Below are positions 39,166 to 50,002 of a stretch of DNA of 64,000 bases, one piece after another. The translations under genes were made by a program, and so were the position numbers. Each line of letters opens with the position of its first letter. Within the stretch, counting starts at the first letter, position 1. This DNA comes from Longimicrobiales bacterium (GTDB taxonomy: Bacteria; Gemmatimonadota; Gemmatimonadetes; Longimicrobiales; Gaopeijiaceae): the NCBI GenBank assembly GCA_965218295.1, contig CBDCKN010000013.1:553032-617031 (forward strand), given 5' to 3'. The notes under the pieces were generated by a model. The model had not been told where the DNA came from. It saw nothing but the letters and a program-made list of their open reading frames with translations, and ran no database searches.

Positions 39166-40538
39166 TGCGCCCCGCTTGCCGCCAGGGCTCGGAGAACCGA
39201 CTCGAACTTGATGCTGGTCTCCTCCCATTCGAGGCCGGAGTCCGAGCCGGCTACGATGCCAGCTCCGGCGAACAGCCGCCACTGATGGTCGTGGGCCACT
39301 GCGCAGCGGAGCGCCGGAGCGAAGACCCCGTTGCCTTCCAGGTCGAACCAGCCCACAGGCCCCGCATACCAGCCACGCTCGAACGGTTCCTCGCGACTCA
39401 GAAACGCGAGGGCATCGTCCCGGGGAAGCCCACAGACGGCTGGCGTGGGATGAAGAGCCTCGAGCACCGTCAACACCGACGTGCCTTCCGGCACGCTCGC
39501 CCGGATTTCAGTCTCGAGATGTTGTATCCGCGCCAGCGTGAGGACGTGGGGCTCGGGCTGCGCGTGCACCTCGTGGGCCAGCGGCCCCAAGCGGGCCACC
39601 ATGTCGTCGAGGGCGATACGATGCTCGACTCCGTTCTTCTCACTCGCCAGCAGGCGCACCGCCAGGGCTTCTTGCTCCTCGAGCGTTTCGCCGCGGGCAA
39701 CCGTTCCGGCAACGGCCGTGGCGTGGAATGCACCCCGGGACATGGTCGCCACAGTCTCCGGCGCCGCTCCCACGAGCGGACACCCGTCGGCCGGCTCGAA
39801 GAGGAAGACATGGCTTCCGTGGTTCTCCTCCCAGAGGTGCTGCACTACTTCGACGGGATCCACGCGTTCTTGGGTGACGACGTCCAGGGTGCGCGCCAGC
39901 ACCACCTTGGACACCTCCCCTCCGGCGATGGCCGCCAATGCGTCGGTGACGGCGGAGTCCCACGCGCTGCGCTCCGATTCGGTTCGAGTCGTCGGGATGG
40001 TGGGAGGTGGCCCGTTCTCACTGCGCGAAACCCCTCGGAGCCTCTCGCAAATCCGTCCGGCCCGCTTCGACAGCAGGCTCAGCGCGGTATCCACCTCGCC
40101 CTCGTCGGGACCGACCACGGTCCGGACCGTCAGCCGCGGTGGTCGGCAGCCCCTACCCTCCAACTCGAACGCAGGTAGGTGGAAGAGCGCGGGGGTGAAC
40201 CCGGCCCAGAGATCGACGGTGGAGTGGTCGGAGCGGAAGGAGAAGCCGCCGTAGAACCGGCTCAAAGTTGTCCGTTCACTGCCCGTGACAGGAGCAAAGT
40301 CGAACAGAGCGCGTGCCTCGGCCTCGATGGCGGAAAAGCGGTCCGTCGAGGCATGGCCGTCTACCGAAAGCGTGGCAACGGCGCCGGAGTGGGCCACCCA
40401 GCGATCGGCCCTGGCCCAGAACCCGCGAGGCCCACCCTTCGCCTGCCGAAGGAAGAGCATGGGATCGGCACCCATGGCTTGTGCAGTCACGGTGACGAGG
40501 CGTGCCGGTGCGGCCACGACGGTATCTGCCGGGTTCAT
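39162..40538 (-). CDS. menF: Isochorismate synthase
   Basis: KVVLAR, AVAGT, LHPTPAVCG, RGWYAGPVG and AGAGIV. Confidence 0.92.
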   Translation of the reverse strand: MNPADTVVAAPARLVTVTAQAMGADPMLFLRQAKGGPRGFWARADRWVAHSGAVATLSVDGHASTDRFSAIEAEARALFDFAPVTGSERTTLSRFYGGFSFRSDHSTVDLWAGFTPALFHLPAFELEGRGCRPPRLTVRTVVGPDEGEVDTALSLLSKRAGRICERLRGVSRSENGPPPTIPTTRTESERSAWDSAVTDALAAIAGGEVSKVVLARTLDVVTQERVDPVEVVQHLWEENHGSHVFLFEPADGCPLVGAAPETVATMSRGAFHATAVAGTVARGETLEEQEALAVRLLASEKNGVEHRIALDDMVARLGPLAHEVHAQPEPHVLTLARIQHLETEIRASVPEGTSVLTVLEALHPTPAVCGLPRDDALAFLSREEPFERGWYAGPVGWFDLEGNGVFAPALRCAVAHDHQWRLFAGAGIVAGSDSGLEWEETSIKFESVLRALAASGAQ

Positions 40539-40714
40539 GGCTCCGTGGTTCGAGCGTACGTGTACCTCACGGTCCAGCAGCGGACCGTGGGGCTCAATAG
40601 TCCGGGCAGATGGCAATATACGAGAAAGGTCCGTCATACCAAGACGAACGACCTTTCTGCGGCCCACGTGCCACCGCCTCGCGTCGGCGCGGTTGGACAG
40701 GCATGTTGTGTTCC

Positions 40715-41509
40715 ATGGTCCATCCCACGCCACAATCCGATAACCCCCGGCCCAGGGTCGCGCTCTTTGTCACGTGCATGGTGGACGCCATGTATCCGCG
40801 CGTCGGCATGGCGTCCGTCGAGCTTCTGGGGCGGCACGGCGCCGAGGTCGTCTTTCCCGAAAACCAGACGTGCTGCGGCCAGCCGGCCTTCACCGCGGGA
40901 TATTGGAAGGAGGCACGTAAGCTTGCCCTGAACTTTCTCGACGTGTTCGGTCCCCTGGTCGAAGGCGGCGAGGTCGATGCCATCGTTGCTCCGTCCGGAA
41001 GCTGCGTGGCCAACGTGAAGCACTCCTTCCGGATTCTCCTGGAAGGGGGGGCGCCCGAGGAGACTCGTGAGCGGGCCCGGCTGGTAGGCGACCGCACCCA
41101 CGAGCTCACCGAGTATCTCGTGGACGTTCTGGGAGTGGAAACCACGGGAACGAAATCGACCCGGTCCATCACGTATCACCCGTGCTGCCACCTGCTGAGG
41201 GAGCTCAGGGTCGACCGCCAACCGCGCACGCTTCTCGAGAGCCTCGAGGGTGGGGAGCTCGTCGATCTAGAGGAGTCCGAGGAGTGCTGTGGCTTCGGCG
41301 GCGCCTTTGCGGTCTGGAACTCGGAGATCAGCACCGAGATGGGTCGCCGCAAGGCCCGGCACCTGGACGCCTCGGGGGCTCAGGTCGTGGCAGTGGGCGA
41401 CGTGGGTTGCATGACCCACATGAACGGAATCCTCGTGCGAGGCGGCCATCGATGCCGCGCCGTTCACATCGCGGAGCTCCTGGCAGGCGACGACGGGGGC
41501 CGCGCGTGA
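40715..41509 (+). CDS. lutA: L-lactate utilization Fe-S protein LutA/LldE
   Basis: LFVTC, QTCCGQP, SGSC, YHPCCH and CCGFGG. Confidence 0.9.
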   Translation: MVHPTPQSDNPRPRVALFVTCMVDAMYPRVGMASVELLGRHGAEVVFPENQTCCGQPAFTAGYWKEARKLALNFLDVFGPLVEGGEVDAIVAPSGSCVANVKHSFRILLEGGAPEETRERARLVGDRTHELTEYLVDVLGVETTGTKSTRSITYHPCCHLLRELRVDRQPRTLLESLEGGELVDLEESEECCGFGGAFAVWNSEISTEMGRRKARHLDASGAQVVAVGDVGCMTHMNGILVRGGHRCRAVHIAELLAGDDGGRA

Positions 41510-42993
41510 AGATCGACATCGACGCGCCCTACCGGACCCGGGTCAGGCAAGCCCTGGCGGACACCGACCTCAAGACCGCCCTGGACCGGGCCACCGGGCA
41601 ACTCGCGCAGAGACGCCTGACCGCGCTGGCCGCGGTGAACGCCGAAGTGATGCGGGCCGAGAGCCGAACCGTCCGTGAAAGGGCCATCCGGCGTCTCCCA
41701 GAGCTTCTGGAGGAGCTGGAGGGCAACCTCGCTCGAAACGGATGTACGGTGCATTGGGCTCGAGATGCCGCCGAGGCGAACCGCGCAGTAGTGGAGATCG
41801 CCCGGCGCGGGGGAGTGGAGAGTGCGGTCAAATCCAAGTCCATGGTCACCGAGGAGATCGGGCTCAACCACGCTCTGGAGGAGGCCGGGATCGACATCGT
41901 CGAGACGGACCTCGGGGAGTACATCATCCAGCTCGACGACGAGCCGCCCAGCCACATCGTCGCTCCCGTCATTCACAAGCGCGCCGAGGACGTGGCAAGA
42001 GTCTTCGAACGGGAGCTGGGGATGGAGCCGACCCTGGACGCGGCGGTCATGTGTGCCACGGCACGAGGGGAGCTGCGACGGCGATTCCTCGGGGCGCAGA
42101 TGGGGATCAGCGGCTGCAACTTCGCCGTGACCGAGAGCGGCACCATCTGCTTGATCACGAACGAGGGGAACGGCCGCATGGTGACCAGCCTCCCCCGGAT
42201 ATATGTCGTCGTGGTCGGGATCGAGAAGGTCGTGGAGACGCTGGAGGACGCGGTGCTTCTCTGGCAGGCCACGACGAGAAACGCGACGGGCCAGGACGTC
42301 TCGGTCTACTTCTCATTGACTAGCAGCCCACGTCCTGCGGGTCACGCCGACGGGGCCCAGGAAATGCACGTCGTCCTCGTCGACAACGGGCGCTCGGGCG
42401 TGCTCATGCGCGGATACGCCGACGCACTCCTCTGCATCCGCTGTGGAGCGTGTCTGGACGTATGTCCCGTCTACCGGGAGATCGGTGGGCACGCCTACGG
42501 TCGGACCCCCTATTCCGGGCCCATTGGGTCGATCCTCACCCCATTGCTGGCCGAGGCCAGGGGGGACGACTCGAACGCGGGCAAGGAGCTCCCGTTCGCC
42601 AGCTCGCTCTGCGGAGCGTGTAAGGACGCCTGCCCCGTGAAGATCGATCTCCCCCGGCTGCTCCTCGAGCTCCGAGGTGATCTGACGGCACGGGGTGAAT
42701 CGAGCCTGGCGGCACGAGCTTCCGTGAAAGCGCTCACGCTGCCCTTGCATGGCCCGCGCCGATACCGCTTCGCCACACGGGTGGGACGCTTCTTCGGCCG
42801 GCTTCTGGGGGGACGCGTAGGACACATATCCGCCTTGCCCCCGCCCTTCGGCGCATGGACCCGAACCCGGGTGTTCCCCGTTCCACCGAAGAGGACGTTC
42901 AGGGAGCTGTGGAAGGCCGGGAGGGCGAGGCGGAGCGGCGGGGTGGATGGGGTGGAGGCCGACGGGCACGACCAGGGCACGGAGGCGGGATGA
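41506..42993 (+). CDS. lutB: L-lactate utilization Fe-S protein LutB/LldF
   Basis: KSKSMVTEEI, ETDLGE, NEGNGR and CIRCGACLDVCP. Confidence 0.93.
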   Translation: MKIDIDAPYRTRVRQALADTDLKTALDRATGQLAQRRLTALAAVNAEVMRAESRTVRERAIRRLPELLEELEGNLARNGCTVHWARDAAEANRAVVEIARRGGVESAVKSKSMVTEEIGLNHALEEAGIDIVETDLGEYIIQLDDEPPSHIVAPVIHKRAEDVARVFERELGMEPTLDAAVMCATARGELRRRFLGAQMGISGCNFAVTESGTICLITNEGNGRMVTSLPRIYVVVVGIEKVVETLEDAVLLWQATTRNATGQDVSVYFSLTSSPRPAGHADGAQEMHVVLVDNGRSGVLMRGYADALLCIRCGACLDVCPVYREIGGHAYGRTPYSGPIGSILTPLLAEARGDDSNAGKELPFASSLCGACKDACPVKIDLPRLLLELRGDLTARGESSLAARASVKALTLPLHGPRRYRFATRVGRFFGRLLGGRVGHISALPPPFGAWTRTRVFPVPPKRTFRELWKAGRARRSGGVDGVEADGHDQGTEAG

Positions 42994-43799
42994 GCGACTC
43001 TGCGCAGGCGAAAGGCGGGGCGTCGGCCCAGGCACGAGCGTGGATTCTCGGGCGGCTTCGAGAAGGTCTCGCCGATCCCTCGGCCGCGTTCAAGGTACCC
43101 GGGTCCGGGGAGCCCCTCCCCGGACCACCCACGCCTATCACACATGCCGGCGGCGATTCCCGGGCTTTGGCCGAACGGTTCGGAGCCAGCCTGGACGCCG
43201 TGCTGGGGAGCCACGAGATCGTCGAAGGTGCGGACGCCGTCGTGGATCGGGTCCTGGCGCGCATCGCCGCGCTACGCGAAGCCGGCTCGGCGGACGGCCT
43301 TTCCTTCGCAAGGGCTCTGGCCTGGGCTGCGGACGCCCTGGGAGTCCACGATCTCACGGAGCGCTTGGGCCGGGCGGGCATCTCGGTGATCGTGCCCGAC
43401 GACCTCCATGATCCGAGGCAGCGAAGGGACGCCGCGAGCGCAGCAGTCGGTGTCACTGCGGTCGATGCCGCTCTGGCGAGCACCGGCACTGTGGTGGTGG
43501 GTGCGGGCCCCGGCCGGAGTCGAGTGGCCAGCCTGTTGCCGTTACATCACATCGTCTTGGTCCCCACGAGCCGAATCCACGGTAGCGCGGAAGCGTGGAT
43601 CGCGTCTCTCAGGGAAGACGGACGGTTGGACGACACCCTGCGCGACGGTTCTCAGCTCACCTTGATCACGGGACCCAGCAAGTCGGCGGACATCGAGCTG
43701 ACGCTGACCCTGGGCGTTCACGGCCCCCGAACGGTTCACGCCATCATCTTCCACGATCAGGGCCTGACGGAGACCCTCCGCTCCACGAACACCGTGTAG
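42990..43799 (+). CDS. lutC: LutC/LldG (LUD domain)
   Basis: ITGPSKSADIELTLTLGVHGP. Confidence 0.9.
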   Translation: MSDSAQAKGGASAQARAWILGRLREGLADPSAAFKVPGSGEPLPGPPTPITHAGGDSRALAERFGASLDAVLGSHEIVEGADAVVDRVLARIAALREAGSADGLSFARALAWAADALGVHDLTERLGRAGISVIVPDDLHDPRQRRDAASAAVGVTAVDAALASTGTVVVGAGPGRSRVASLLPLHHIVLVPTSRIHGSAEAWIASLREDGRLDDTLRDGSQLTLITGPSKSADIELTLTLGVHGPRTVHAIIFHDQGLTETLRSTNTV

Positions 43800-45631: not shown

Positions 45632-45729
45632 GAGCCGGCTCCCCGGCCTCGGAGGAATTTCTTTGTCGGTGGCGAGCCGCGTCGGTAGATTGGAGCTACC
45701 GACGTGGGCCATTCGATCCGGGAGCAGCG

Positions 45730-46540
45730 ATGCGGCTGCGAGTCCAATACGTCTTTTCTATGGTGACCTTGGTTGCCCTGTCGGGGTGCGGCGAGACGGC
45801 AACGGAGCCGATCGAGCCCACGGGAGCTCTAGACGAGCTTGCCGCGCAGGCGGCAGCAACCGCCGTAGTCGAGGCGACGGACGCCAGGCTTCCCCACCTC
45901 CCCTCCCTGGTCCACGAGGCCCTCGAGGTTGTCAGGTCCGACGACGCCCAGGTCGAAGCCGCCACCGCCTTCCGACGTGCGCGCCGAGCCCGGATGGCGG
46001 CCCGGGAAGCCTACGAAGCTGGTGACGAAAGGCGAAGCCCTTCGCCTCCTGCGTCGGGCCCGCCGGTTCACCCTCGAGGGGGTCATCGCGGCGTTGGGTC
46101 CGGGCGTCGTCACGGAAGCCATTGCCGGTGTCGAGGCCGCCATCGCCCACTGGGACGAGCGAGTGTCCGATCGCGACGTGCCCGAGCGCTTCCTGCGAGC
46201 CCTCGAGCACGCCCGGAGGCAGGCGGCGGCGGCCCGGAACGCCGATTCCCCCGTGGCCGCCCTCTCCCACGCGCTCATCGCCGCGGAGATCATCCGGGCC
46301 CTATCGCCCGCTCACCTCGCCATCCGGGCATTGCGCCACGCGGCTCATGCATTCCGTGGGGCCACAGAGGCGGTGGGTGATGCCCCCACGGACGACGAGA
46401 GGGCAATTCTGGCCGAGGCTCGCCGGGTTCTCTCGAGGGCCGAAGAGGCCTTCTAAAACCACGAGTGGCGAGCCGCCCTGCGTGCCGCCCTGGCTTCGGC
46501 GGAGCTCTCACTCAAGGTCCTCGACGGCCGATCCCCGTAG
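45730..46540 (+). pseudogene. Helical lipoprotein with frameshift (about 46030) and in-frame TAA (46454-46456)
   Basis: Lipobox LSGC; coding-like frame continues NHEWRAALRAAL after the TAA. Confidence 0.6.
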
Positions 46541-46589
46541 CGGGCGTATCCCATCGCGCCGCATCGCGGGCACCAGGCGGTCCTCGGCA

Positions 46590-46745
46590 CCCGTTGACGA
46601 GCCAGCTGTACCAGGCGGAGCCCACCGACCCCATGATCCTGGGGAGCGTGGTTCTGGTGCTCTGGCCGTGGGCCTCGTCGCCAGCTACCTGCCCGGAAGA
46701 AGGGCGAGCCGCCTCGATCCTGTGGAAGCGTTGCGGGCGGAGTAG
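46590..46745 (+). pseudogene. C-terminal stump of a MacB/FtsX (ADOP-type) permease
   Basis: LYQAEPTDP...ASYLPGRRASRLDPVEALRAE split over two frames. Confidence 0.7.
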
Positions 46746-46748
46746 TCC

Positions 46749-47174
46749 TCAGAGGCACTTGCGCAGGACCGGGGTTTGACCGCGCCGGAGCTGGTAGGGA
46801 CCCGCCGTCAGATCTCTCGGGATGATGTCCACTTCCAGGCTCATAGACGCTCCGCCGATCCGCCCGCGGAAGAGGGCCTCGAGCTCGTCCGGGGGATCTT
46901 CGTTGCTGACCGGTCCACCCTCGGGCACCCAGATCCCCGAGACCTCGAACGATCCATCCTACTCGTCGAAGGAGAGCCCTCCGGGAACCGAGGCGTGGGC
47001 ACAGTCGAACTCGAAGCTGGCGGAGCCGGTCTCGATCACAGCCGCCACGCCCTCCCCGCCCCATTCGCCCAGCGAGTCGGAGACCTGGAAGGGGTCCGAG
47101 CAGGCAAGCAGAGAAAGGATTCCCGCAAACCACAGCGCCAGAGCGGATCTACGGTTATTCGTGCTGGATAGCAT
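46749..47174 (-). pseudogene. Lipoprotein with in-frame TAG (46959-46961)
   Basis: Lipobox LLAC; frame continues DGSFEVSG..EGGPV...LRKCL after the TAG. Confidence 0.65.
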
Positions 47175-47313
47175 GTTGTGTTCCGTTACCTCCATAGATA
47201 AACGATCGACTGGCGCTCTTGTGACAGTCGGGTCCATTCGGCCTCCCGAGGGTATCGTTTCTTCGCCGGACCCCACTCCCCGGACGCAACATGATCGAAT
47301 GGGCCAGAGTGTG

Positions 47314-48108
47314 ATGACGAACAGACCTCCGCGCCAGGAGAACCTGGACCGCTTCGAGGCCAAGTACGCCCGTGCTCGGTCGAACGTCGCTCGCCAGATC
47401 GGGAAAGAAGCGTGTGGGCACGACTACAGCCTGAGCGGATATACCACGGTCGCTGAGGCCCGAGAACTGGTACGACACCTAGGCCTGCACCAAGACTCCA
47501 GTGTTCTCGATCTCGGAAGTGGCCGGGGGTGGCCCGCCATCCACTTCACGAAGGAGGCTCGCTGCAGGGTGGTCGCTACGGACGTTCCCCTTCAGGGACT
47601 TCAGGAAGCCGGGGAGCACCTACGGTTTCGGGCGGGGGCCGACGCGAGGGCGCTCCCGTTCCGGTCGAGCTCCTTCGATGCCGTCACTCACTCCGATGTG
47701 TTCTGCTGAATTCCGAACAAGCTCTCCGTGCTGAGAGAATGTCGGCGGGTGCTGCGGCCCGGCGGACACGTGGGAGGGTGGGTGATCCACACGGCCGAGG
47801 GCCTGACCGAGTCCGAAGAGCTTCGTGCCGCCGAGCTGGGCCCACCGGCGGTGCTATCCTCAGTGCCGTATTCGGATCTCATTCGTGAAGCCGGTCTCGA
47901 CCCTAGCCAGCTCACCGACGTAACGGCGGGGTTTCTGAAGACGGTCCAGACCATCCTGAGCTCGCGAGAGAAATACCGGCGAGCTCTCCTGGAGACGTGT
48001 GGCCCCGACGCGCATGAGGAAGAGCAGGAGATGCTCGAGAAGCTGCAGGAAGGGATCCAGACCGGCGTGCTACGGCGCTCACTGTTCGTGGCGGCCCAGC
48101 CTCACTGA
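47314..48108 (+). CDS. Class I SAM methyltransferase, candidate selenoprotein (in-frame UGA 47707-47709)
   Basis: VLDLGSGRGW, LPF..SFDAVTHSDVFC-UGA-IPNKLSVLRECRRVLRPGG in one frame; SECIS-like hairpin follows. Confidence 0.75.
47710..47740 (+). promoter_or_regulatory. Putative bacterial SECIS element
   Basis: Stem CTCTC/GAGAG starts 12 nt after UGA; loop CGTGCT has G at position 2; ATT/AAT lower pairing. Confidence 0.55.
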
Positions 48109-49280
48109 TCCGTCCCACCTCCGGCGACGCTCTTCTTCAACGCCCGGGCGGCCTCCGCGTATCCTCCCCCTGCCGCATCGACGAAGTGGAAGTGAGCACT
48201 CTGGCGGTGCTCGATCAAACAGGTCATGAGTGCCGAGTGGGCGATGTGGACCCCGAACGAGACCTCGCCCCGCCGCCGTAGCCCGCTCAGGTATTCCTCG
48301 AGCTCCTCCCGCTGCTCGGCGCCCCCTGCAAGGACCAACCGCAAGGACCCGTCGAACTTGCGGAAGTCGGTATTGGAGACCAGGTCACCCATGTACATGC
48401 CCCAGTCGACATCCCGGGTCCGTACCCCGAACCGGAGCAGGAACCAGCCGAGAATCACCTGGGCGCGCAGGAGCAGCCCGTGAGCCATGCGCACCAGCAG
48501 GCCGTCCCGCCACCCCTTCAGTCGAGACTCGTTGCCCAGAATCGCCCCCGACAGGGTGACGCGAAGGCCGCCCTCGGTGACGGGCCGGCACCGATCGGCG
48601 TTCCCGTAGATCGCCCGGATCCGATCCATGATCGGTCCGTACGCTTCCAGCGTCCGGCCCGCTTCGGTCGTGGCGTCGATGATCACGGCCACCGTTTCGC
48701 CAAACGGGCTGGGGATCTCCCCCCACCTGCACTCGAGGCCGCTGTAGTCGGCTTCGGCCGACGGGTCCGGTTTGATCAGGAATTGGGCGGGGAGCTCCCC
48801 TCGCTTCAGGCTCCTCTCGGCGAACTCCGCCCCTCCACCATGAAGGGCACATTGAAAGTAGTGTGGAGAAACCCGATGGCGTGCCACGCGAACCTCATGC
48901 CCAAGCCTTCTGAGGTAAGCCACCGGAACGACGGCCGCCCTCAGCTCCAGGCCGAAGCTCTCCTTCGCAATGGCGGTGGTGGCGGACATGGCCCGGGCGA
49001 CGGCCGGGGCGGCACGACAGGGAATGCACATCCGCGCCCCGTCCCCGCCGAAGATGTAGGGGATCTCTACAGGCCTGAGCACGTTTACGGTGGCGGCGAT
49101 GACGGAAACACCGACGGTGTTCACCGCTTTGTAGTTCCCTGCCTCTATGGCGCCAGTGGAATCCGCGATATCCGCCACCACTACGGACCAGTCCTCTGGG
49201 AGTAGCACGTAGCTCTCGGAGCGGACGAGGGCCTCGAAGTCGTCGACCGGTTCGATACCGCTATAGAACGAATCTGACAT
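48102..49280 (-). CDS. DUF3095-family protein (adenylate cyclase-like fold)
   Basis: ADIADSTGAI..G.YK.VN, FGGDG, GLECRW, DFRKFDG and HFHFVDAAGGGY. Confidence 0.85.
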   Translation of the reverse strand: MSDSFYSGIEPVDDFEALVRSESYVLLPEDWSVVVADIADSTGAIEAGNYKAVNTVGVSVIAATVNVLRPVEIPYIFGGDGARMCIPCRAAPAVARAMSATTAIAKESFGLELRAAVVPVAYLRRLGHEVRVARHRVSPHYFQCALHGGGAEFAERSLKRGELPAQFLIKPDPSAEADYSGLECRWGEIPSPFGETVAVIIDATTEAGRTLEAYGPIMDRIRAIYGNADRCRPVTEGGLRVTLSGAILGNESRLKGWRDGLLVRMAHGLLLRAQVILGWFLLRFGVRTRDVDWGMYMGDLVSNTDFRKFDGSLRLVLAGGAEQREELEEYLSGLRRRGEVSFGVHIAHSALMTCLIEHRQSAHFHFVDAAGGGYAEAARALKKSVAGGGTDQ

Positions 49281-49509
49281 GGCCTTGTTGCCCCACACGG
49301 TGCCATCCCCTAGGCTGCAAATCCTCCATGATAGTAACGAAATTCCGGAGATTTCATGTTCTCGACTTCCACAGCGCCAAGGCTCCTACTCGGTGGCATA
49401 CTCGTGGCCACTCTGGCCGTTCTCACGGGGTGTGACGCCGGATCGGGCGACGCTGCCGACCTCGTGCTGCGCAACGGGGGTGGGAAGGTCATGTACAGGG
49501 GCGGGATGA

Positions 49510-49995
49510 ACTGACCTCGAGCGGTGGGCCGACGATCACCTGGATCCCAAGATCCACCACAACAACCTGATCCAGTCGATCCTCGCGAAGATCGAAGCCA
49601 ATCACGCCGGAGCCGACCATGCCCTGATGCTCGACAGGAGCGGCTTCATCGCCGAGGCCCACGGCACCCACGTGTTCTTCGTGAGGCGCGACAAGGTGTT
49701 CACCGGCACCACCGAAGCATGGCCGAAGGGGATCACGCGGCAGACGGTGCTGGACCTCTGTGCGGCCAACGGGATCGAGCACGAGGTTGGGAGGGTCTCT
49801 CTCACTGAAGCCTACGCCGTAGACGAGATGTTCTGTACAGGAACCATGGGAGGGCTGGTGGCGGTTACGACGTTGGACGGGCGGACCATTGGCAGCGGGG
49901 CGATCGGACCCATGACGAAGCTGCTCTCGGAACTGTATGCCCAGGAGACTGCCTCGAGCGGGTATCAGATTCTCACCCCGCAACCCCAGGGCTAG
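49510..49995 (+). pseudogene. Class IV aminotransferase, N-terminally truncated
   Basis: LDPKIHHNNLIQSILAKIEAN, GITRQTV and DEMFCTGT; in-frame stop at 49507 upstream. Confidence 0.75.
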
Positions 49996-50002
49996 CGCGA
50001 CG

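Follow-up and report, generated by a model that had tools for sequence, protein, structure and literature searches.

A predicted Cys-Sec SAM-dependent methyltransferase family with selenocysteine codons at one or both positions of a vicinal pair

A methyltransferase gene interrupted by one in-frame TGA

The window (the whole stretch of 64,000 nucleotides of a Longimicrobiales contig that was analyzed) carries on its forward strand a methyltransferase gene whose reading frame is broken by a TGA codon. The features of the locus are listed below.

47314..48108, + strand: class I SAM-dependent methyltransferase gene, RebM/MitM/phosphoethanolamine N-methyltransferase-like fold, 264 aa with the TGA read through
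47509..47535, + strand: SAM-binding motif I, D-x-G-x-G-x-G-W-P, residues 66-74, from the family alignment
47620..47640 (approximate), + strand: lineage-specific in-frame loss of about 8-9 codons; D90 to P115 is 25 aa long, against 33
47689..47706, + strand: H126-x-D128-x-x-C131, where beta-4 ends and the active-site loop lies; C131 opens the vicinal pair and would be Sec in TGA-Cys and TGA-TGA relatives
47707..47709, + strand: in-frame TGA, predicted selenocysteine 132, aligned with His141 of RebM (3bus)
47719..47737, + strand: predicted bacterial SECIS core within the K-L-S-V-L-R codons, from hairpin comparison and bSECIS criteria
47230..47983, no strand: 754-nt stretch holding the 5' part of the gene with its TGA and SECIS, missing from the congener G001 and from a variant found in two runs

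The TGA at codon 132 is the sole internal stop in the frame from 47314 to 48108, and translation of the 264 codons bears out the original prediction of a single frame broken at this one place. A TGC cysteine codon directly precedes it, giving the translated context ...THSDVFC-U-IPNKLSVLREC..., and the terminal codon of the gene is TGA as well. For the read-through protein, Pfam PF08241 and PF13649 score above cut-off, and the Methyltransf_11 match covers residues 65-153, across the TGA. Sequencing run X1, possibly the source of the window, spans the gene without change; a contig from a second study (run X2) shows 0 differences over 47200-48013, and one from a third study (run X4) covers the gene with 6 substitutions, none of them in the TGA, and no gap. 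As contigs of other studies agree with it, the TGA is not an assembly slip. The RNA run X19 holds a 207-nt contig identical to 47271-47477 at a depth of 2.7, which ends before the TGA and to which DNA may contribute.

The further expectation that read-through restores a complete fold stands in part: the methyltransferase domain does continue across the TGA, but about 8 residues are missing, and strand beta-3 is absent from the model of this copy. The segment from D90 to P115 is 25 aa long in this copy and 33 aa long in 70 of 83 family members, and the same in-frame loss is present in the contigs of runs X2 and X4. The AlphaFold model of this copy has six strands, with beta-3 unresolved at pLDDT 54-68, while that of the relative L019 has seven, beta-3 included. 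The congener G001, which keeps a CU paralog (Cys followed by predicted Sec) elsewhere in its genome at 39-41% identity, has the 754-nt deletion, as do variant contigs from runs X2 and X4. In a quick tree the branch of this copy has a length of 1.25 against a median of 0.41; the copy departs from the family at 7 of 60 well-conserved columns (median 4, family range up to 14), and against a close strain it shows 4 non-synonymous and 2 synonymous differences.

The genes around it are partly broken. A TAG at 46959-46961 interrupts a lipoprotein-like gene (46776-47174, minus strand); it stems from a 3-nt insertion that neither G001 nor the X2 and X4 contigs have. Of a class IV aminotransferase (~49520-49995) only the C-terminal part is present, covering positions 140-221 of the 223 in the Pfam profile. 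It had been cautioned that two neighboring genes also carry in-frame stops; these proved unrelated to recoding, being the TAG insertion and the aminotransferase fragment. The same patch of decayed genes, from 45700 to 50000, contains a frameshifted gene (~45730-46456), a permease-like C-terminal fragment (~46590-46745) and a short N-terminal fragment (~49350-49480). The neighbors within the window (DUF3095, a PEMT-family protein, TauD and hypothetical lipoproteins) gave no functional lead. Further upstream, in the region 39481-43799 on the plus strand, a three-gene cluster (40610-43799) that we take to be a LutABC-type lactate-utilization Fe-S operon lies beside minus-strand genes that are presumably menaquinone-synthesis-like.

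The missing residues, the gene fragments around the gene and the deletion in relatives indicate that this copy may be decaying, and we give some weight, short of preference, to the possibility that Sec decoding is real for the family while the TGA and hairpin of this copy persist through recent descent. The long branch and the excess of non-synonymous strain differences point the same way. Against it, the 264 codons contain neither a frameshift nor a second stop although the closest full-length homologues are only 36-47% identical, all invariant residues and SECIS nucleotides are kept, the same intact frame recurs in three studies, and the 7 deviating columns lie within the family range. This copy keeps all of its recoding signals, with an activity that is perhaps reduced or absent.

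The Cys/TGA pair, its hairpin and the selenocysteine machinery

The 13 top full-length protein matches (35-42% identity) all read D-V-x-C-C where this gene reads D-V-F-C-TGA, so that every one of them has Cys at the TGA column. Sixty relatives were searched, and 8 had a match at E ≤ 1e-15; in six of these the family gene is present, each time with its TGA at the corresponding codon, and the two weaker matches, one of them in the unpublished genome G056, have His at the column and do not belong to the family. Among 185,579 species genomes scanned, 313 relatives were confirmed, and in the best 80 of these the codon pair is Cys-TGA in 46 (CU), Cys-Cys in 25 (CC), TGA-TGA in 5 (UU) and TGA-Cys in 4 (UC), with no other combination; TGA thus stands in the column of codon 132 in 51 of the 80. 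Across 87 loci, only TGC, TGT or TGA occurs at either position. The 80 loci come from six phyla (Gemmatimonadota, Actinomycetota, Chloroflexota, Acidobacteriota, Dormiibacterota and Pseudomonadota), and the quick tree contains 8 changes among the four forms; it is rooted at its midpoint and no ancestral form is claimed. Forms that open with TGA mostly have Thr as residue 129 (H-T-D-T-L in 61 of 120 UU loci; the UC and UU loci compared were L028, L032, L049, L055, L064, L097 and L101-L220), while CU and CC forms mostly have Val there. Viral contigs yielded no protein relative, 13 pattern matches of which none was confirmed, and 0 matches to the TGA-plus-hairpin pattern.

A library of 1.84 billion proteins returned 271 clusters at E ≤ 1e-30. 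Among the best 150 of them, 86 have CC, 2 have CW and 1 has another pair; 19 stop immediately behind the first Cys and 2 immediately ahead of it, and 40 were left unclassified by pattern. Since database proteins end at the first Cys, gene callers evidently split the family gene routinely, an outcome anticipated for annotation pipelines and also seen in the window, where the two halves appear under table 11 as separate ORFs.

The hairpin that follows the TGA has a 5-bp stem (47722-47726 with 47733-47737) and a 6-nt loop (47727-47732) opening C-G-U, which places GU at loop positions 2-3. It begins 12 nt after the UGA and has G at the second loop position, details of the original prediction that the coordinates confirm; the loop lies 17 nt from the UGA and 20 nt from the first codon of the pair. 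The bSECIS model, in the accessible text of PMC13188914, allows a loop of 3-9 nt, a stem of 4-16 bp and 16-37 nt from UGA to loop, places G and then G/U in the first two loop positions, and sets a free energy of at most -7.5 kcal/mol. The hairpin of this gene lies within the limits for loop, stem, G position and spacing given there, and its fold energy is -12.8 kcal/mol over the 41 nt after the UGA and -5.7 kcal/mol for the conserved core alone.

We rejected hairpin stability as stand-alone evidence, because it is at chance level by both measures used: the folding z is -1.1 to -1.2 in two short segments and +0.2 and +0.85 in two longer ones, and a comparable hairpin follows 3,679 of 88,096 genomic TGAs (4.2%). 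The hairpin draws its significance from the comparison of forms. All 5 stem pairs are intact in 60 of 60 TGA-bearing genes (55 from the best 80 loci, together with L008 and L011-L014) against 1 of 25 Cys-Cys genes; the latter count, like the selA count below, includes L060 from the unpublished genome G103. The codons within the hairpin are frozen only in the TGA genes (L137 as CTC in 60/60, S138 as TCC in 59/60 and R141 as AGA in 54/60, AGA being used for only 122 of 1,666 Arg codons in these genes), and there the codons flanking them vary freely. RNAalifold, run on 57 of the 60 TGA genes with three near-duplicates left out, recovers the same 5 pairs with none broken and 6 one-sided changes, all from U-A to U-G. 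Covariation did not materialize: none of the 5 pairs shows a two-sided compensatory change among these 57 genes, so the conservation of the hairpin could partly reflect sequence rather than structure. In the host genome the hairpins after the UGA in selD and in a fragmentary ArsM-like gene differ in sequence from this one, and no host-wide SECIS consensus emerged from them; for formate dehydrogenase, also sought there for comparison, no match exceeded the cut-off. The SECIS-bearing 40 nt (window 47700-47741) attract a pile-up of contigs from other organisms in all four runs, the RNA run included, because this stretch is so conserved; a probe for the family could be built on it.

That the TGA is a true stop in a pseudogene or split gene, or stands for Trp under a variant genetic code, is very improbable. 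The chance-level stability of the hairpin taken alone, the other broken genes in the region and the two database proteins with C-W at the site would fit such a reading, though the C-W proteins are most likely products of gene-caller read-through. It conflicts, however, with the occurrence of TGA only where homologues have Cys, in six phyla, with the position of the codon, where termination would separate beta-4 from beta-5 within the domain, and with a hairpin that tracks the TGA forms. As for Trp, the terminal codon of the gene is itself TGA, and UGA therefore still acts as a stop.

The selenocysteine machinery sought in the host genome (3.57 Mb, 90.7% complete) was found in full: selA, selB and selD score above curated cut-offs, selD itself having an in-frame TGA, and selC is present as a tRNA-Sec with a TCA anticodon. 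Across the family, selA is present in 48 of 55 TGA genomes and in 9 of 25 Cys-Cys genomes, counts that come from draft genomes and include kin that are not independent; the 7 of 55 TGA genomes that lack a selA match are drafts. The five TGA-TGA genomes have selA in 5/5, selB in 4/5 and tRNA-Sec in 4/5. Two tRNA-Sec genes occur in G129 (loci L221 and L225), and two full selA genes in G092.

The forms with two adjacent TGA codons carry the hairpin at the same place as the CU and UC genes. A metagenome scan with an exact pattern, TGA-TGA followed by the hairpin, yielded 120 loci of an estimated 130 or so, and all 120 match the family profile with at least 81.6 bits; clustering gives 76 groups at 90% identity and 42 at 70%. 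As the pattern itself included the hairpin, these loci test read-through and not the hairpin. Past the double TGA, 116 of 120 loci have no further stop for at least 110 aa or up to the end of the contig, and the frame mostly closes 126-137 aa beyond the two codons, like that of the gene described here. From the 96 of these loci that have 90 codons on either side, 18 disjoint pairs were formed, and their median dN/dS is 0.175 before and 0.20 after the double TGA; the stretch after the double TGA is under purifying selection. The shared, fixed hairpin and this selection suggest that one bacterial SECIS is likely to serve two adjacent UGAs. Two consecutive Sec residues have been described in the algal protein PDI_e, with the motif GUGUU, called there the first such selenoprotein (accessible text of PMC7539508); for bacteria, a literature search partly swamped by irrelevant matches found no report of consecutive Sec.

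Taken together, the interchange of Cys and TGA in all four combinations (CC, CU, UC and UU), a hairpin whose nucleotides are fixed in TGA forms alone, the Sec machinery of the host and purifying selection make it highly probable, on sequence grounds, that the UGA is decoded as Sec and that the gene belongs to a family of Cys-Sec SAM methyltransferases. Decoding would proceed through the hairpin 12 nt downstream, whose GU-containing apical loop SelB would bind, and would place a Cys-Sec pair where related enzymes have a catalytic histidine. One hairpin would serve a UGA lying either 17 or 20 nt before the loop, so that both codons would be decoded in the UU genes.

Active site, gene neighborhood and candidate substrates

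In the family the motif I residues D66, G68, G70, G72, W73 and P74 are conserved at 100%, and D90, the acidic residue ending beta-2, is invariant. The TGA had been placed after a Cys at the end of beta-4, and both the sequence and the AlphaFold models agree, with the C-U pair just after this strand in this copy (pLDDT 87) and in L019 (pLDDT 93). The closest solved relatives by profile are MitM, RebM, AtmM, TleD and the phosphoethanolamine N-methyltransferases, the top six having E values of 1e-27 to 1e-21; sarcosine dimethylglycine methyltransferase is also among the best matches by sequence and by fold. Fold comparison with the solved relatives gives query TM scores of 0.62-0.79 at 12-25% identity.

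Profile alignment sets the CC or CU pair on H140-H141 of RebM, which we take to be its catalytic histidines, and on the L-H of R-D-T-I-L-H in AtPMT2 (5wp5). The His that RebM and the PMTs have at D+4 is absent from all 87 loci, which have Cys or predicted Sec there, while Y18 (96%) and D128 (100%) are conserved. RebM (3bus), AtmM, MitM, TleD and the PMTs (5wp5, 3ujc) share by alignment the same Y...D-x-x-x-H layout, but their His-His or Leu-His is replaced by Cys/Sec pairs, and their substrates are not transferable to the family. In PfPMT the catalytic dyad is Tyr19-His132 (accessible text of PMC6661969). From the alignment with the His of RebM and the PMTs and the retention of Y18 and D128, we infer that the predicted Sec132 occupies the catalytic position. 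The models would place the pair at the end of beta-4, beside SAM.

The neighbors of relatives bear on the acceptor. In the 80 loci these include an ArsM-like methyltransferase in 12 (one of which, at L036, is a weaker, generic methyltransferase match), an ArsR-rhodanese in 9, an MBL-fold/rhodanese protein in 8, an MFS transporter in 7 and DUF4395 in 3; at least one recurrent neighbor is present in 18 of 80 loci and none in 62. Sulfur-handling and ArsM-like selenoprotein genes recur beside loci of Actinomycetota, Chloroflexota and Dormiibacterota; none of the recurrent neighbors occurs in the Gemmatimonadota clade to which this window belongs. At L067 and L072 the recurrent neighbors form one gene run ending in the family methyltransferase; that of L067 (1231-6819) comprises an ArsR-rhodanese regulator, DUF4395, an MFS transporter, an MBL-fold/rhodanese protein, an ArsM-like selenoprotein and the methyltransferase, and clusters of this type also occur at L072, L055, L094, L050, L074 and L038. 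The ArsM-like partner in these clusters reads S-N-G-V at what is presumably the site of the ArsM motif Cys. A TGA-bearing ArsM-like gene lies upstream on the same strand in 16 of the 37 UU loci that have at least 1.5 kb of upstream sequence, several of the 16 being near-copies, and other UU loci adjoin purine-synthesis-like genes. The host genome (G000) itself has, on contig C3 (31265-31585, minus strand), an ArsM-like selenoprotein gene reading W-T-N-U-I-A-G, of which it seems to retain just the C-terminal part; a strong hairpin follows the UGA of this gene.

The ArsM-like selenoprotein and rhodanese neighbors suggest a sulfur, selenium or arsenic substrate, and lend indirect support to the metalloid or thiol substrate of the original prediction. 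The vicinal thiol/selenol pair would grip a soft, thiophilic acceptor (sulfide or persulfide, selenide, or As(III)) for methylation, in a detoxifying route that in many genomes would be shared with the adjoining ArsM-like selenoprotein. This is the reading of the substrate that we place first, tentatively and at somewhat less than even odds.

Ranked below it, and rather unlikely, is an ordinary small-molecule N- or O-methyltransferase in which the pair acts as a redox switch (selenenylsulfide or diselenide) or as a metal ligand that gates activity. Such an enzyme would be in keeping with the best matches, MitM, RebM, AtmM, TleD, PMT and sarcosine dimethylglycine methyltransferase, since the closest solved structures use small organic N/O acceptors and not metalloids, and with the many loci, most of those examined, that lack sulfur or arsenic neighbors; yet the His of those enzymes is replaced in the family, and sulfur-handling and ArsM-like selenoprotein neighbors recur in three phyla. 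Last in the ranking, and unlikelier still, Sec132 would be a transient methyl carrier, its selenolate being methylated by SAM and passing the methyl on in a ping-pong reaction, with the adjacent Cys or Sec as the resolving residue. Selenolates are strong nucleophiles and poor general bases, and Cys serves as a methyl carrier in radical-SAM RNA methyltransferases and O6-alkylguanine transferases. A Sec form of O6-alkylguanine transferase is inventoried in the accessible text of PMC13188914. The predicted replacement of the catalytic His by a selenolate beside SAM, from alignment and model, would suit a carrier, but the free interchange of CU, UC, UU and CC fits a two-ligand site better than a single, geometrically fixed nucleophile.

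Relation to known selenoproteins and significance

No NCBIfam model reaches its cut-off for the read-through protein, and the models of known selenoprotein methyltransferases score 22-39 bits against cut-offs of 263-575. The nearest known kind is the Sec arsenite methyltransferase type, NF008823 (UxxG), with its fusions NF041536, NF041537 and NF047649 (accessible text of PMC13188914), which shares with the family a class I SAM methyltransferase domain, UGA-encoded Sec and an intragenic SECIS. NF008823 is also the type of the commonest neighbor of the family. These four models give 38.6 bits against 510, 24.6 against 575, 32.2 against 460 and 27.5 against 263. They place Sec in W-x-x-U-I-A-G after beta-5, whereas the family has a vicinal C/U-C/U pair right after beta-4, and the UxxG motif is absent from the read-through protein. 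MduS (NF045649, CxxU, 2 Sec) likewise combines a methyltransferase domain with Sec but differs in motif and length, at 21.7 bits against a cut-off of 380.

Vicinal Cys-Sec in place of Cys-Cys, with annotation truncated at the UGA, is also described for SaoL, SaoB, SaoC and HgcA, for which a role in metal(loid)-organic chemistry has been proposed (Haft and Gwadz, bioRxiv 10.1101/2022.07.06.499078); as far as the accessible text goes, these proteins have unrelated folds, with no class I methyltransferase and no UU form among them. The UU forms have a further counterpart in two consecutive Sec residues outside bacteria. Eukaryotic SECIS elements lie in the 3' UTR. In the UU forms, a bacterial, intragenic SECIS at a fixed distance would have to serve both codons, unlike in algal PDI_e, which also has two consecutive Sec but is eukaryotic and thioredoxin-like (accessible text of PMC7539508).

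The family is absent from Table 1 of the 2026 inventory of 119 families in the accessible text of PMC13188914, and the accessible parts of deep-Sep, BSepDB, SelCysML and the Haft-Gwadz preprint do not describe it. Other methyltransferase selenoproteins, one of them algal, appear in PMC2375036 and PMC1976440, whose accessible text does not show this motif. A literature search turned up no account of the family. We conclude that this is a new selenoprotein family within a known kind of system, with high confidence that the gene is a genuine selenoprotein gene; Haft and Tolstoy 2025 and Deng et al. 2026 may bear on its novelty.

A broader picture, put forward tentatively and at somewhat less than even odds, is that of CU, UC and UU selenoenzymes of several phyla under one SECIS. 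In soils, sediments and the sea, these would form a two-selenoenzyme module with the ArsM-like protein, together with rhodanese and persulfide enzymes, for the methylation of sulfur, selenium or arsenic species. The finding adds a selenoprotein family of at least six phyla that annotation pipelines cut in two, with Sec at what would be the catalytic position of a fold for which no selenium chemistry is known there. The CU, UC, UU and CC forms under one fixed hairpin constitute a natural series for the strictness of UGA-SECIS spacing in bacteria, and the same series bears on whether a single SelB-binding hairpin can insert two Sec residues, and thereby on the engineering of proteins with multiple Sec. 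Should the enzyme act on sulfur, selenium or arsenic species, the family would represent an overlooked route of environmental methylation.
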